From the NCBI GenBank assembly GCA_945835885.1, contig CAMAJR010000001.1, positions 7,193 through 71,192 on the forward strand: a DNA stretch of 64,000 nucleotides. The letters are read 5' to 3'. How positions within the stretch are numbered: position 1 is the stretch's first letter; each line of letters starts with the position of its first letter. Under the pieces are notes generated by a model. It searched no databases. It was not told the origin of the DNA and saw nothing but the letters and a program-made list of their open reading frames with translations. This stretch comes from an uncultured Alphaproteobacteria bacterium (GTDB lineage Bacteria; Pseudomonadota; Alphaproteobacteria; RF32; CAG-239). A program made the position numbers and the translations under genes. Positions 3,922 through 50,089 of this stretch are shown piece by piece.

Positions 3922-4386
3922 TTATTCAGCTGAGCTTACAACTGTAACGGCACGACGGTTTTGAGCCCAAGCTGCTTCGTTGCTGCCGAATACAGCCGGT
4001 CTTTCTTTACCGTAAGAAATTGTAGAAATTCTGTTTTCTGCAACACCTTGAGCTACCAAGTATTGTTTAACAGCGTTGGCACGGCGTTCACCCAAAGCCA
4101 AGTTGTATTCACGGGTACCTCTTTCATCGCAGTAACCTTGAACAATTACGTTCACATCGTCGTGGCTCTTCAACCAAGCTGCTTGAGAATCCAAAGCGGC
4201 ACGAGCTTCAGCCGACAAAGCAGAACTGTCTGTAGCAAAGAATACAGTATCTGTTGTGTTTTCAGCAAAATCACGAGCATTTCTCGATTCGCAGTCAGCA
4301 CCGCTGAACAAACCGCCGTTTGCACCAAACATAGAACAACCGGACAAAGCTACGAGAGCTACGAACAAACTTAAAAGCTTTTTCAT
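3922..4386 (-). CDS. pal: peptidoglycan-associated lipoprotein Pal (OmpA-like domain)
   Basis: 154 aa. Lipobox LSGCS. OmpA-like peptidoglycan-binding domain (NLALGERRANAVKQYL, RRAV). Confidence 0.85.
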   Translation of the reverse strand: MKKLLSLFVALVALSGCSMFGANGGLFSGADCESRNARDFAENTTDTVFFATDSSALSAEARAALDSQAAWLKSHDDVNVIVQGYCDERGTREYNLALGERRANAVKQYLVAQGVAENRISTISYGKERPAVFGSNEAAWAQNRRAVTVVSSAE

Positions 4387-16783: not shown

Positions 16784-17482
16784 TCAATAATACTTCCAGC
16801 TGACTGCACAAGTTGATTTGTTTGCGCAATTGCAGGCCGTGCGTGCTTGATCAATACGCATCGGAATACCAACCACTGCGTCACCCGGAACAGCGATTCC
16901 GTCGTCTGCACTACCGGTATTTGCCGTTGTTACGGCATTTAAAACTGTGTCTGTTGCTGCAGATTCAGCCGGTGTTTCCATAGTGCCGCCGACATCTACA
17001 CTGGTCAAACCTTCAACGTTATAAACATGCATAGCGAGCAAACCTGAAGAAGAACCCGCACCCCAATCAGAGGTGGCAATTGCTATACAGGCGTCGCGTG
17101 ACATATTAAAGAACGAAAGGATAAATGCACTCTTATCTGTTTCGTCATTCACATAAGACGGGGCAATTTGAACCGGTCCGCCAAACACATTACGGAGAGC
17201 TCCGGTCGGTTTTCCATCACTGTCAACCACAATTAAATCATCCGGCACAATACCCATATCAACGGCCATCGTGTTACCTAAGTTCATATATGTTTGTTGT
17301 TGTGCATACATTGTGCGCGTGTTGGTCACAAACATAGAAATTTGTTCCATAACTTTGTTGGCACGATATTTGGCCATTGCCTTTGAATAACCCGCAATAC
17401 CGCCTACCGACAAAACACCGATAATCGCTAACACACCGAGCATTTCGATCATGGAACGACCTGATTGATTGTTTTTCATCAT
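16784..17482 (-). CDS. type IV pilin-like protein (prepilin-type N-terminal cleavage/methylation motif)
   Basis: 232 aa. N-terminus MMKNNQSG|RSMIEMLGVLAIIGVLSVGGIAG has Gly at -1, Glu at +5 and a hydrophobic helix. C-terminal Cys pairs. Confidence 0.55.
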   Translation of the reverse strand: MMKNNQSGRSMIEMLGVLAIIGVLSVGGIAGYSKAMAKYRANKVMEQISMFVTNTRTMYAQQQTYMNLGNTMAVDMGIVPDDLIVVDSDGKPTGALRNVFGGPVQIAPSYVNDETDKSAFILSFFNMSRDACIAIATSDWGAGSSSGLLAMHVYNVEGLTSVDVGGTMETPAESAATDTVLNAVTTANTGSADDGIAVPGDAVVGIPMRIDQARTACNCANKSTCAVSWKYY

Positions 17483-44082: not shown

Positions 44083-44706
44083 CTACAACGCCGGTATGTT
44101 AATGGCGGCAATCTGCCCCGGCTTAATACGTTGTTGCCCGTAGTGCATATTATTTACTTCAATCATATAGGCCTCACGTCCCGTCCATTTGGCGGCGGTC
44201 GTGTAAAAGTCTTTGCCCGACACTTCTTGCGTTTTCGGGTTGACGATATATAATACGCACGGTTGCTGATATTCTACCAAACCGCAACGACTGCGTCCTC
44301 TCGGAACATCGGGGTTAAATACAACACCATCCAAGCCCTGACCGGTAACGGTGCGCGAACGCGGAGCCACCATATAGCCGAGTATTATACCGATTAAACA
44401 AGCAATAAACATCAATATCTGAACATTTTTGCTTTGAATAATATCTTTCATCGACTCAGTGTGCTCATTATACAACTCCGCATCGGTAATAAAGTGAATG
44501 CTCTCTGCTTCACCGTTGTTATCAAAGATAATATTATCGCCGTTATCTGAAAAAAATGAATCCGGTGACGACGGCTGCTGTTCCGGTTGCGTATAGTTGA
44601 CTTTCGTCGGGGTTCCGAAACTGGTCGGCTGATTAATCGGCTGAGTTTTTATCTTTTTGATTTTTCTTAATTTTCTCGGTGGAACTGAATTTGGTGTATC
44701 TGCCAT
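44083..44706 (-). CDS. hypothetical bitopic membrane protein (possible secretin/pilus-assembly partner)
   Basis: 207 aa. Pro/Ser/Gln-rich cytoplasmic N-terminus, one TM (ILMFIACLIGIILGYMV), ~110-aa periplasmic C-terminal domain. Starts 17 bp after the secretin-like gene. Confidence 0.45.
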   Translation of the reverse strand: MADTPNSVPPRKLRKIKKIKTQPINQPTSFGTPTKVNYTQPEQQPSSPDSFFSDNGDNIIFDNNGEAESIHFITDAELYNEHTESMKDIIQSKNVQILMFIACLIGIILGYMVAPRSRTVTGQGLDGVVFNPDVPRGRSRCGLVEYQQPCVLYIVNPKTQEVSGKDFYTTAAKWTGREAYMIEVNNMHYGQQRIKPGQIAAINIPAL

Positions 44707-44723
44707 AATAAAACCTCGTCAAA

Positions 44724-46004
44724 TTAAAGATTATTTTTAACTTTTTCATTTGTTTTTAGGGTGCGAATCAAACGCGGAACCATAAAGACAATGGTTTCCG
44801 ACTTAGGCGAATCGATGCCGAACAGTTCGTTTGGCAAGCCAATCATCAGGAAATTTTCGCCGAGTTTGCTTCTAATATTAAATTTTGTGACTTGACCGTC
44901 GGTAACTTCCAAAGTGGCATCCGTAAAGATTTTATTGCCTTTTTCAACAGAGGCCTTTGCCAAGATGGACATCCCGTAAGGGTCTGCGCCCGGTGCACTG
45001 CATTTGCCGATATCAAACCGCGCCAACCACAAGTTCGGAACAACAAATTTGCCTTCGGAAACTGCTTCAATTCTTGCTTGATTACCAAGGAATTGCTGCA
45101 ATTTTTCAACCGAAATATCGTTGCTGGTGGTCAAAATGCGACCGATAACGCCGGTCTGCGCCGTGGTAATTGAGCCGAAATCAAACGCGTTCAGCATCTC
45201 TTTCCACTCAATATCTTTCGATTGGTCAAACGGATAAAGCCGGAAGACGCTGACATCGTAGGCCACTAAAGTAGGGCTTCCTTCAAAAAACTTTATCAGT
45301 TCGGTTATCTTCTTTTGGGTATCTATGTCGGCATCAAAGGTTATCGAGTAATCCGACCAATTTGCCACAATATTTGTAATACCGGCACCGCGAATCACGT
45401 CAAGCAAACCAAGCATTATCGGGCGAGAATGCGGCAGATACAGCGTCATATTGGCGTGACGACTCATTGTCAGGATTTTATCTTTAGCATTATAAGAATA
45501 ATAAACACCGGCAGATTCGGCAATCATTTTAATAACCTCAGAAAATTCACCCTTCAAATCTTGCGCCGAAATGCTGGTATAAGGTCCGTCAGCTGACGAA
45601 ATACGAATCCCGGCTTCTTTGGTCAGACGCACCATTGCTTGTTCGGCCGGCATCATATCGAATGTAAAGCCGTTGACTTTAAAGCGCGGTAACGGGTCGT
45701 TTTGACCGTTGCGTTCGAGCTTAAAGGCAGATTTGGCATACGGCAGGGTTAAAATCATTTGTTGGTCTTCCCAGTTGACGTTGCAACGAAGCGGGGTTTC
45801 CAAATCGAGTGCATTGGCACCTTCTGTCGTGCGAATCATATACGGATTTTGCTTTTCCGATTTTAGAGGTTCGACTTTTAAGCTTTCCTGATACTCTTCT
45901 TCCAATTCTTTAAGAAGGACTTCCTGATCTTCAACACATGCTGCCAAAACAATGGCTAAAGCTGTCAGAAAAATGTAAAAACTTATTTGATAAAACTTTT
46001 TCAT
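44724..46004 (-). CDS. secretin-family outer-membrane lipoprotein (compact secretin with N0/N1-like and C-terminal secretin domain)
   Basis: 426 aa. Lipobox IVLAAC. C-terminus GENFLMIGLPNELFGIDSPKSETIVFMVPRLIR resembles the conserved secretin C-domain tail (IPxLGxLFG....E..iFitPri). Size and lipidation resemble T4bP/BfpB/TcpC/PilN-type secretins. Confidence 0.5.
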   Translation of the reverse strand: MKKFYQISFYIFLTALAIVLAACVEDQEVLLKELEEEYQESLKVEPLKSEKQNPYMIRTTEGANALDLETPLRCNVNWEDQQMILTLPYAKSAFKLERNGQNDPLPRFKVNGFTFDMMPAEQAMVRLTKEAGIRISSADGPYTSISAQDLKGEFSEVIKMIAESAGVYYSYNAKDKILTMSRHANMTLYLPHSRPIMLGLLDVIRGAGITNIVANWSDYSITFDADIDTQKKITELIKFFEGSPTLVAYDVSVFRLYPFDQSKDIEWKEMLNAFDFGSITTAQTGVIGRILTTSNDISVEKLQQFLGNQARIEAVSEGKFVVPNLWLARFDIGKCSAPGADPYGMSILAKASVEKGNKIFTDATLEVTDGQVTKFNIRSKLGENFLMIGLPNELFGIDSPKSETIVFMVPRLIRTLKTNEKVKNNL

Positions 46005-46023: not shown

Positions 46024-46539
46024 TTATGATTGATTCTGCTTATTTTCGCTATTGTTTTGAGCGTTTTCGGACATCAGTTTATTCATTAAATCATCGATAT
46101 TCATACCGGCACCGACAGTCGGATCGACAGCTTTATCGAAATTGCTCATAACTTCGTTCATTTTTTGAGCCTCGTTCGGGTCTGTCCGAAGCATCTCCGG
46201 CGATTGATTATTCGTCAATTCTTTTTGATAAAGAGATAAATTTTTCTTTAAGGCGGCAATACCGCCGGCAATTTTCTTTTCAACATAAGGATGCAGTTCT
46301 TTGTGTTCTAAAATATAATTACCCGTATCGCAAATTTCTTCTAAAACATCTAAAATATACGGATAAAATTTATATTCTTCCAAAGCAATGTTACCCATGC
46401 GCACGCAACGGGCTGCGATTCGTGATATTGTGCGGTCGTAATAATCAATCAACACAATATAATTATGCACATACCACAAGCTGTCTTTAGATACGGCCGG
46501 TCCGATGTTTTGCGGTGTGTTTGTATATGCTTCTGCCAT
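46024..46539 (-). CDS. hypothetical soluble protein
   Basis: 171 aa. No signal peptide. No recognisable motif. Asn/Gln-rich tail. Confidence 0.45.
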   Translation of the reverse strand: MAEAYTNTPQNIGPAVSKDSLWYVHNYIVLIDYYDRTISRIAARCVRMGNIALEEYKFYPYILDVLEEICDTGNYILEHKELHPYVEKKIAGGIAALKKNLSLYQKELTNNQSPEMLRTDPNEAQKMNEVMSNFDKAVDPTVGAGMNIDDLMNKLMSENAQNNSENKQNQS

Positions 46540-49015: not shown

Positions 49016-49990
49016 TTACAAGTTAATAACCGCAACTTTATGCAACTTTGTCAAATCGCTGTTAGAAAAGTTTATTCTCTCGTCAGGATTCCAACGCAAA
49101 CCGTAAAGTTGACCGTTTTCATCTTCGCGAATACTGAGTAATTTTGTTTCGGTATCGCTTGCGTAAAACAAAGCTATGTCACCGGAACTTACGACTTCGT
49201 TCGGATCAATAATCAAAACGGAGCGACTGGACAATAAAGAGCCCAAACGCCGAGAGCACAAGTTGACCGCATAAATATTGTGCTTATGCTGCAACTGGGT
49301 AGGGCAAGCGATTTCTTTAAAATTGGTGCGTGTGTCTATAATGATGTTGCCTTCACTGTCACCAGAACCGTAGACCGGTATCATAATATCATTATCACTT
49401 TCTGTAGATGAAAGACCGATGTTAGCGTAACGTGCATTGTTCAAAAGTTTGTAACGTGTGTCGTTATGTTCGATAATATCTTCGAGCTGTCCGCCGGCTT
49501 CAAGCGCTTGAATTTCGGCCTTAAGCTTATCAACCGTAGTAGAAAAAGCTTTGGCAATATTTTTGTATTCTTTATCGGAAACTTCGCGTTGTCCCATTTC
49601 AATACGATGGTAGACGGAAAGAGTCATATCTGCGTGTTCGGCAACTTCAATCAAGGTCAGTCCCTTATTGGTGCGGATATGGCGTAAGCCGGCTCCAAGT
49701 GTCTTCAGTCCGGCAGTCTGATTAATTTTGCTGCGACGCTCTTGCTCACGTTTCCATGCCTGAACAACATCTTGCTGTGAGTTTTGCTCGTTGACGTATA
49801 AATCTTGTAGCGAACAATCAAGTAATTCGGCAACTTGAATCAGCTGTTCTTGATTTAACCGGCGATAACCCTTTTCAATTTTAGAAATAGCAGACAAACT
49901 GACACCCAAATGGTCAGCCAACTCTTGCATCGGCATACCATGCAGGCGACGATGCATTCTTATTTGATTTGGGAAAATAATTTCTTCCAT
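49016..49990 (-). CDS. XRE-family transcriptional regulator with two tandem HTH domains and a C-terminal beta-rich domain
   Basis: ORF track start at 50035 lies in AT-rich DNA. ATG at 49990 (MEEIIFPNQIR...) with AGGGGT RBS is preferred. HTH 1: MQELADHLGVSLSAISKIEKG. HTH 2: LTLIEVAEHADMTLSVYHRIEMG. C-terminal ~150 aa possibly S24/LexA-like, but no clear GDSM. Confidence 0.7.
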   Translation of the reverse strand: MEEIIFPNQIRMHRRLHGMPMQELADHLGVSLSAISKIEKGYRRLNQEQLIQVAELLDCSLQDLYVNEQNSQQDVVQAWKREQERRSKINQTAGLKTLGAGLRHIRTNKGLTLIEVAEHADMTLSVYHRIEMGQREVSDKEYKNIAKAFSTTVDKLKAEIQALEAGGQLEDIIEHNDTRYKLLNNARYANIGLSSTESDNDIMIPVYGSGDSEGNIIIDTRTNFKEIACPTQLQHKHNIYAVNLCSRRLGSLLSSRSVLIIDPNEVVSSGDIALFYASDTETKLLSIREDENGQLYGLRWNPDERINFSNSDLTKLHKVAVINL

Positions 49991-50089
49991 TTTTAACCCC
50001 TGTAAATACATAATATTTAACATCATAATATTCATTTAGGGACAAAATGCAAGCCAAAAATAGCGATTATATACAAAATTTATTTGCGC

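Follow-up and report, generated by a model that had tools for sequence, protein, structure and literature searches.

A divergent secretin-family lipoprotein with truncated gate loops linked to a VirB6-like gene array in uncultured gut Alphaproteobacteria

We analysed 64,000 nucleotides of contig CAMAJR010000001.1 from an uncultured alphaproteobacterium (hereafter the window) and focused on two adjacent genes that encode a 426-amino-acid (aa) lipoprotein and a 207-aa protein with a single transmembrane helix (p207). The lipoprotein belongs to the secretin superfamily as a true, though very divergent, member; among canonical secretins it is closest to the lipoprotein secretins of type IVb pili. 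It represents a strongly conserved, previously unannotated secretin subfamily that retains the barrel and has lost the closing parts. Together with p207, a 171-aa protein (p171) and a regulator with two helix-turn-helix (HTH) domains, it forms a module attached to an atypical gene set resembling a type IV secretion system (T4SS). We propose, with about even confidence, that the pair serves this neighbouring conserved locus as an outer-membrane secretin ring and its inner-membrane partner. We found no published description of such an arrangement of VirB6-like and secretin genes in the literature.

Both open reading frames (ORFs) reported by the first-pass annotation are present (Table 1). The 426-aa protein begins with MKKFYQISFYIFLTALAIVLAAC, which carries a lipobox with Cys23, contains GENFLMIGLPNELFGIDSPKSETIVFMVPRLIR followed by TLKTNEKVKNNL, and ends in GENFLMIGLPNELFGIDSPKSETIVFMVPRLIRTLKTNEKVKNNL. 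Direct searches did not identify it: Pfam-A gave no match to PF00263 (Secretin), PF03958 (Secretin_N) or PF07660 at E ≤ 1, the NCBIfam secretin models including TIGR02520 (PilN) and TIGR02519 (MshL) gave none, and neither the 426-aa protein nor p207 matched any family in Pfam-A, NCBIfam or PHROGs. Against PDB sequences, phmmer with the 426-aa protein and hmmsearch with a 43-sequence profile returned only noise (E ∼ 1). Nor is there homology to canonical VirB, Dot or Tra proteins in Pfam, NCBIfam or PDB, and the structural matches are all secretins. The first-pass annotation had let its secretin proposal stand or fall with a hit to PF00263 or PF03958. That hit is absent, yet divergent homology can still be demonstrated; the curated-profile test is too weak for so divergent a family, and to take its outcome literally is misleading.

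The homology becomes visible through bridging proteins. When 1.84 billion representative proteins were searched with a profile built from 25 homologues, ∼ 50 full-length family members were retrieved, followed by longer proteins (450–750 aa) at E values of 3e-12 to 5e-5. All ten bridging proteins that were scanned carry PF00263 (E 1e-11 to 1e-20), some together with STN. When the family alignment (43 sequences, A2) was compared with that of the BfpB-like bridging secretins (23 sequences, A3) by hhalign, the two matched with a probability of 100% and an E value of 7.4e-40 over 337 columns, covering query residues 80–422. The terminal SETIVFMVPRLIR strand falls within this alignment, which bears out the earlier remark that the C-terminal tail is secretin-like. 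The bridging secretins score best against the MshL and PilN models, far under their cut-offs (46–88 bits against TIGR02520, where the cut-off is 287.65), and their best PDB sequence match, far ahead of all others, is BfpB (E 1.3e-38).

An AlphaFold2 monomer model of the 426-aa protein, calculated from the 43-sequence alignment, has a mean predicted local distance difference test score (pLDDT) of 86.8 and a predicted template-modelling (TM) score of 0.74. Foldseek found 37 matches in the PDB at E ≤ 1e-3, and all are secretins. BfpB ranks first (9u5s_A, E 2.8e-9), followed by PilQ, InvG, GspD, pIV and RcpA; after the full secretins come isolated secretin N-domains (GspD 3ezj, XcpQ 4e9j, EscC 3gr5). 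The match rests on E-values, the TM-scores being low (0.14–0.26), as is expected because a multi-domain monomer model is compared with subunits taken from rings. BfpB is thus the best structural match of the protein as well as the best PDB match of the bridging family, in agreement with the resemblance to type IVb-pilus lipoprotein secretins noticed at the outset. It is very improbable that the secretin likeness is accidental or compositional and the protein an unrelated lipoprotein. The missing direct matches would fit such a view, as would the poor AlphaFold2 model (pLDDT 41.8) obtained from a shallow alignment of 25 near-identical sequences, but the hhalign result, the PF00263 domains of the bridging proteins, the exclusively secretin character of the significant structural matches and the registration of hinge glycine, terminal strand motif and domain order with pIV, PulD and BfpB refute a chance resemblance within the computational evidence. 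Both genes are genuine, not fortuitous ORFs: the databases hold 894 homologues of the 426-aa protein and 80–115 of p207.

The domain order is that of a type IVb secretin. The signal peptide ends in an LAAC lipobox whose cysteine (Cys23) is kept in 36 of 43 family members and in all 25 close relatives, with Val at the +2 position. The linker that follows consists of a helix (residues 27–42), a low-confidence stretch and a conserved LDLETPLRC74NVNW segment, and corresponds in position to the LG domain of BfpB. An N0-like domain, an N3-like ring-building domain and a shortened secretin domain complete the protein; the model and the Foldseek matches show N0, N3 and the strands of a double barrel, without N1 or N2. 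The secretin domain is ∼ 55–60 residues shorter than in the closest canonical secretins and only nine residues follow it, so that there is no S domain. BfpB of the enteropathogenic Escherichia coli bundle-forming pilus (PDB 9U5S) has the order LG domain, N0, N3, secretin, likewise without N1/N2 and without S domain (PMC12531336), and shares with the 426-aa protein the lipobox and an N-terminal helix and linker ahead of N0; it is larger (552 versus 426 aa). PilN of the R64 thin pilus and MshL, the best models for the bridging secretins, are also lipoproteins of similar architecture. The phage secretin pIV (f1/M13, PDB 7OFH, PMC8563730) is comparably compact (405 aa when mature, with N0, N3 and secretin domains and no S domain) and is matched by Foldseek at E 8e-5, but it is not lipidated and works with the phage partners pI/pXI.

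The gates are unusual. We placed the query on M13 pIV, BfpB and PulD via the hhalign match and applied the published gate definitions. In pIV, Gate 1 lies between the hinge glycines 267 and 297, Gate 2 spans Asp321–Asn335 and a 36-residue lip comprises residues 199–234 (PMC8563730); in InvG, GATE1 is the physical barrier and GATE2 buttresses it (PMC6155069), and BfpB is shut by a central gate (PMC12531336). Query residue G333 aligns with the hinge Gly267 of pIV, but the Gate 1 loop that follows has 10 residues instead of the 29 found in pIV and BfpB. The Gate 2 loop, present in both of these, is deleted after F375 in the alignment to pIV, BfpB and PulD. The loop that runs from the following strand to the conserved P..LF motif, ahead of the membrane-associated amphipathic helix, is about half as long as in BfpB, and the lip is also shorter. 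The truncation is common to the whole family. Gate 1 has 8–10 residues in all 43 members versus 29–34 in all 23 BfpB-like secretins; the distance from the second hinge position to the conserved Gly389, a segment that contains Gate 2, has a median of 44 residues (n = 43) versus 63 (n = 23), and that from Gly389 to the conserved Glu403 of the last strand a median of 13 versus 32. Glycine occupies the second hinge position in 13 of 43 family members and in 23 of 23 BfpB-like secretins. The wall-forming strands, the first hinge glycine, Gly370, Gly389, Glu403 and the terminal strand are, by contrast, nearly invariant. A one-off truncated pseudogene was considered and rejected, the short form being family-wide and highly conserved. 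Neither this family-wide truncation nor the adjoining pilin and VirB10/VirB11 genes described below figured in the first-pass annotation.

Since the gate parts are missing, a ring built from this protein would be permanently occupied or shut by something else. Two cysteines are invariant (43/43), one in the N-terminal segment (C74) and one in the Gate 1 stub (C335), and a disulfide between them is the obvious hypothesis: the N-terminal segment could in this way be tied to what is left of Gate 1. The truncation can also be understood as degeneration, in which case the protein might form a non-conducting ring in the periplasm or outer membrane that acts as scaffold, tether or assembly factor for a T4SS-like machine. 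We consider this unlikely. The shortened secretin domain with its reduced gate loops and lip speaks for it, and N0-like domains do occur in T4SS lipoproteins (PMC12531336); the role would be comparable to that of Xanthomonas VirB7 and Legionella DotD, lipoproteins of T4SS outer-membrane complexes that have a secretin-type N0 fold and, like the lipoprotein described here, are genetically tied to a T4SS. VirB7 and DotD have the N0-like domain only, however, whereas the 426-aa protein adds N3 and a β-barrel secretin domain. The inner and outer barrel wall strands are kept and highly conserved, as are the first hinge glycine, the terminal strand and the P..LF motif; what has been lost is the closing apparatus and not the wall, and the 56–95% identity across the clade argues for a demanding structure.

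The partner p207 starts with a basic N-terminus that is conserved (RKLRKIKK/RKLRKIKRPK). A variable linker rich in Pro and Gln and a conserved ENI-F motif come next, then the single transmembrane helix annotated at the first pass, here placed at residues 95–113, and lastly a conserved C-terminal domain of ∼ 95 residues with two invariant cysteines, C141 and C150 (RCGL...QxC). The positive-inside rule and the cysteine pair suggest that the C-terminal domain is periplasmic. Its gene lies directly 3′ of the secretin gene in every locus examined, including those in which the secretin is only 25–32% identical; in the same way, the secretin gene of the bfp operon is followed by that of a bitopic inner-membrane protein, bfpC. 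Relatives of known function were not found in Pfam, NCBIfam or PHROGs, a profile search of the PDB gave only transmembrane-helix noise, and one of the protein database returned only 'hypothetical' relatives without a Pfam domain. By analogy, the layout of p207 is that of the proteins that couple secretins to the inner membrane, such as GspC, PilP and BfpC.

What the pair works with was approached through gene order. GTDB species genomes were scanned with a 13-sequence alignment, secretin relatives were found in 330, most of them of uncultured Alphaproteobacteria from gut and rumen, and the loci of the best 80 were compared. These 80 are without exception metagenome-assembled genomes of such bacteria (sheep, goat, deer, yak, horse, chicken, human), include 'Azospirillum sp. 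51_20' and Candidatus Scatocola, and presumably belong to the GTDB order RF32. All of them except L022 share one gene order (VirB6-like genes, regulator, variable protein, p171, secretin, p207), and it recurs in relatives whose secretin is only 25–32% identical. Within the clade the secretin (56–95% identity), p171 (61–94%) and the regulator (62–86%) are far better conserved than the VirB6-like proteins (20–54%), and the variable protein is also much less conserved than these three. The flank beyond p207 varies between genomes, which marks p207 as the end of the module. An orphan secretin, one of the two possibilities raised by the first-pass annotation, can be rejected on this conserved synteny, and the other, a component of the adjacent system, gains support from it. 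The genes are co-directional with the VirB6-like cluster, as had been noted, but do not lie immediately downstream of it: three co-directional genes, for proteins of 339, 770 and 171 aa, intervene.

Of these three proteins, p171 matches no family in Pfam, NCBIfam or PHROGs and was not hit by BfpG in tblastn. In distant relatives (L004, L010, L009, L093, L094) the gene before the secretin encodes 450–744 aa with a p171-like segment inside, and in L004 and L003 the protein with this segment has 450–540 aa, so that p171 resembles a cut-down form of a conserved, larger component. The 770-aa protein is the most variable of the module (26–68% identity over partial matches). It has no signal peptide and carries KQEPK (KQEPKKEQKPE) repeats, internal repeats of ∼ 35 residues (..LTxSFxxYSQxLxDLTxSIKxIA..) and C-terminal YEYVDENGNPINPSDD repeats that match models of the surface-protein repeat SSSPR-51. 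Possibly the protein is secreted as a substrate. A weak TcpQ match of this protein (E 0.052) was treated as noise. ORFs antisense to its gene are repeat artefacts. In the 339-aa regulator, ∼ 150 residues without family match follow the two HTH_3 domains. Every locus whose upstream flank is long enough has it in the same place, the distant L004, L010, L093 and L094 among them, and its persistence even beside secretins of ∼ 30% identity suggests that it controls the module.

The label 'VirB6-like' for the genes further upstream is weak within the window, where the 514- and 912-aa proteins match TrbL (PF04610) at E 0.0016–0.0024, but it holds for the 953-aa full-length form, on the source contig, of the 609-aa ORF cut by the window edge (30.6 bits versus a gathering score of 25.9). 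On this 77-kb contig the locus begins right after a divergent 16S rRNA gene and runs through genes for a 300-aa protein, an 807-aa VirB6-like paralogue and a 76-aa protein with two transmembrane helices, both outside the window, and proteins of 953, 514, 368–369, 907–912 and 2185 aa to the regulator, the 770-aa protein, p171, the secretin and p207. The 16S rRNA gene (L006, 1..962; model positions 1–998) lies on the opposite strand beyond window position 64000. Between it and rpmF, the locus contains no ATPase gene, including those of pilus or type II secretion system (T2SS) type. The 2185-aa protein (50090..56647) has a signal peptide, an M23 peptidase domain (E 5e-11), a VirB6-like region with multiple transmembrane helices at ∼ 350–640 and ∼ 1500 residues of low-complexity or repeat sequence (PTPEPTPTPAP; EPTIEPERTEERAQ five times), and two antisense ORFs on the plus strand (50288..51127 and 50509..50982) are most likely by-products of the repeats in its gene. 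The 369-aa protein (59398..60507) looks like a signal peptide, a periplasmic part resembling cell-wall hydrolases, for which no family match was obtained, a Cys-rich stretch and the first VirB6-like transmembrane helices. The M23 fusion and this hydrolase-like protein suggest that a VirB1-type, peptidoglycan-opening function has been fused to VirB6 paralogues.

The nearest parallel for the array is the rvh (Rickettsiales vir homologue) T4SS, which has tandem enlarged VirB6 paralogues, virB3–virB4 beside the virB6 genes and no secretin. Both are tandem arrays of oversized VirB6/TrbL-like genes in an alphaproteobacterium, with VirB10 and VirB11 elsewhere or in a separate operon. They differ in that the present locus has no VirB4, that some of its VirB6-like proteins bear peptidoglycan-hydrolase domains and that a secretin module is attached.

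Further T4SS and pilus genes were sought with the bfp operon proteins of pMAR2 as tblastn queries against the window and the related loci (1.39 Mb from ∼ 80 genomes). BfpE (platform) and BfpP (prepilin peptidase) had no match at E ≤ 1 in the whole set, and BfpD, BfpE, BfpF and BfpP had none in the window. BfpD matched one protein in ∼ 18 loci. We rejected this as a pilus ATPase, for the 322-aa protein is a VirB11 by its full-length match to TIGR02788 (E 6.4e-43). The VirB11 gene is preceded by one for a 1755-aa protein that ends in a VirB10/ComB10 domain (E 9e-27 to 3e-31), and the two genes are convergent with that of p207, sometimes only ∼ 40 bp away. VirB11 is ∼ 90% identical across the subclade. 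In Candidatus Scatocola faecipullorum (L078, 12018..21252, minus strand), the 1755-aa VirB10 contains ∼ 1400 residues of D-x-N-G-N-(V/I)-IG repeats, which match a YD-repeat model, and the gene upstream encodes > 1000 aa of the same repeats. Sixty loci have at least 3 kb of flank downstream of p207. Within 3 kb, VirB11 is found in 14 of these, VirB10 in 12 and a type IVb pilin homologue in nine; 37 of the 60 have neither pilin nor VirB10/VirB11. With the VirB6/TrbL-like array upstream in nearly all loci, T4SS genes thus lie on both sides of the module in some genomes.

The pilin-like gene of the window, pointed out at the first pass, encodes a type IVb-class prepilin (PilS_N, E 1.2e-10; Bundlin, E 1.9e-6; N_methyl) with the leader MMKNNQSG/RSMIEML... 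and lies 27 kb from the module, isolated between rpmA/rplU and tkt. Its mature part starts with an unusual Arg at +1 after the leader glycine (QSG/RSMIEMLGVLAIIGVLSV). Scattered paralogues with the same N-terminus are found in related genomes (L022, L027, L031, L032, L040, L065, L069, L076) among gap, pgk, htpG and gyrB. One genome has five pilin paralogues around the module within a 21-kb stretch, and some homologues lie only 50–100 bp from the p207 stop codon. The pilin counts given above were obtained by tblastn; a scan with a strict class III leader pattern gave fewer.

These pilins are the core of a second possibility, which is serious though less probable than the one we prefer: the 426-aa protein could be the outer-membrane secretin of a type IVb-like pilus made from the scattered PilS/bundlin-like pilins, with its motor genes elsewhere in the genome and its place beside T4SS genes reflecting co-regulation, as for the thin pilus of the IncI plasmid R64, and no common channel. 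With the R64 thin pilus there is already a case of a type IVb pilus that serves a T4SS. The closest relatives of the protein by profile and by fold are type IVb-pilus secretins, and pilins with a class III leader imply that a pilus machine exists, for which a diderm requires a secretin; VirB10, for its part, already belongs to the T4SS. A lipoprotein secretin is, moreover, a hallmark of type IVb pili (PMC12531336). The gene content points the other way. Known type IVb systems hold motor genes and secretin in one operon, as in bfp, and R64 has ATPase, platform, peptidase and pilin in one pil operon, whereas no PilB/GspE ATPase, PilC/GspF platform protein or prepilin peptidase was found in the window or in the 1.39 Mb of related loci. 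Where BfpB is surrounded by the genes for a pilus, T4SS-like genes surround the present secretin, and no BfpD/E/F/P genes and no BfpG/TcpQ-type partner with an N0-like fold were found nearby (BfpG by tblastn). Dynamic pili would also be expected to need a gated secretin, and most loci have neither a pilin nor VirB10/VirB11 beside the module.

Several observations weigh against our proposal that the pair serves the T4SS-like locus directly. The 426-aa protein has no direct match to the Pfam secretin profiles, and its assembly into a secretin ring is extrapolated from a monomer model. We know of no T4SS that uses a secretin. VirB10 normally forms the outer-membrane channel of a T4SS, and since the genomes encode VirB10, the T4SS itself would seem to have no need of a secretin. 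Pilus secretins are the nearest relatives, and type IVb pilin genes are present and sometimes adjacent, which fits a pilus role at least as well. VirB10/VirB11 adjacency is limited to one subclade and absent from the window, and in L022 the module from regulator to p207 has no VirB6 array within 7 kb upstream and is flanked by housekeeping and pilin genes. The Cys74–Cys335 bond and the contact between p207 and the secretin, finally, are hypothetical. In short, synteny favours a T4SS-like system, and homology, the type IVb pilins and VirB10 favour a T4SS-associated pilus. The two explanations overlap: either way, the function of the pair is bound up with the T4SS locus.

If the pair does serve the neighbouring locus, the 426-aa lipoprotein would oligomerize into a double-walled β-barrel ring in the outer membrane. 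This ring would be permanently occupied or closed by something else, for which its own N-terminal segment, linked to the Gate 1 stub through Cys74–Cys335, is one candidate. p207 would be its inner-membrane-anchored partner, with a basic tail in the cytoplasm, one transmembrane helix and a periplasmic, disulfide-containing domain that reaches the N0/N3 rings and couples the ring to the inner-membrane machinery much as GspC, PilP and BfpC do for other secretins. The pair would belong with the VirB6-like array, the double-HTH regulator, the variable protein and p171, in a locus that forms part of an atypical, Rickettsiales-vir-like T4SS of uncultured gut and rumen Alphaproteobacteria, and would not be a free-standing pilus or T2SS machine. 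We also considered, as an improbable variant, a hitherto undescribed hybrid envelope machine: here the gate-less secretin would be the outer-membrane portal of a VirB6/VirB10/VirB11 apparatus that assembles or uses type IVb-class pilins without a PilB-type ATPase or PilC-type platform, its channel shut by the N-terminal segment (Cys74–Cys335) or by a permanent filament.

The remainder of the window is consistent with a diderm housekeeping chromosome region. Downstream of p207 are rpmF, plsX and fabH, and elsewhere lie mraZ/rsmH/PBP, sucCD, obg, tkt, BamB, Der, GlmM, LpxC, BamD, RecN, UvrC and an OmpR/EnvZ-type pair. LpxC, BamB and BamD indicate that the organism has an outer membrane with lipopolysaccharide and the BAM machine. 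The ORFs of at least 150 aa that were scanned are either housekeeping genes or part of the secretin locus; family scans of these ORFs revealed no PilB, PilC, GspE or GspF homologue in the window, as had been claimed. A Pal-like OmpA-family lipoprotein (3922..4386, minus strand) gave a weak match to CpaD of Tad pili (PF09476, E 2.4e-4, below cut-off), most likely because of the common OmpA-like domain only.

Table 1. Positions of the secretin homologue, its domains and associated genes in the window.
Feature	Position	Strand	Basis
426-aa lipoprotein secretin homologue ('mini-secretin')	44724..46004	-	ORF, hhalign, AlphaFold2, Foldseek
Signal peptide and lipobox, residues 1-23 (...VLAAC)	45936..46004	-	predicted acylation site Cys23
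N-terminal linker, residues 24-83	45756..45935	-	AlphaFold2 secondary structure, pLDDT
N0-like domain, ∼ residues 84-190	45435..45755	-	AlphaFold2 alpha/beta pattern, Foldseek, hhalign; boundary approximate
N3-like ring-building domain, ∼ residues 191-258	45231..45434	-	AlphaFold2, alignment to pIV/BfpB N3; boundary approximate
Shortened secretin domain, ∼ residues 259-417, ending SETIVFMVPRLIR	44754..45230	-	transitive alignment to BfpB, PulD, M13 pIV
Gate 1 remnant, G333-KCSAPGADPY-G344	44973..45008	-	alignment to pIV hinge glycines 267/297
p207, bitopic partner, 207 aa	44083..44706	-	ORF, transmembrane prediction, family alignment
p171, 171 aa, without signal peptide or transmembrane helix, directly upstream of the secretin gene	46024..46539	-	
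770-aa repeat-rich protein without transmembrane helix	46613..48925	-	SSSPR-51 repeat matches
339-aa regulator, two HTH_3 (XRE-type) domains	49016..50035	-	HTH_3 E 7.6e-24
VirB6/TrbL-like polytopic membrane protein array	50090..63955	-	TrbL matches, transmembrane helix counts
Array members: 2185 aa (N-terminal M23), 907-912 aa, 368-369 aa, 514 aa, 609-aa ORF truncated by window edge			
Type IVb-class prepilin gene	16784..17482	-	PilS_N, Bundlin, N_methyl matches

Type II and type III secretion, type IV pili and filamentous phages all have a secretin as their outer-membrane portal, and T4SSs are, to our knowledge, the one major class of envelope-spanning machine thought not to use secretins. 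The family described here therefore represents either a new partnership, in which a chromosomal T4SS has a type IVb-like pilus devoted to it, or a secretin fold put to a new use. The missing gate is puzzling under both leading explanations and predicts a permanently occupied channel or a different plug. A family that keeps the barrel walls without the closing loops raises the question of how such a pore would avoid a leaky outer membrane, and provides a natural test of gating models. With this assignment, ∼ 900 clusters listed as 'hypothetical protein', together with their 207-aa partner, also receive a name and a role that can be tested; the bacteria concerned are uncultured but abundant in the gut of humans and ruminants.

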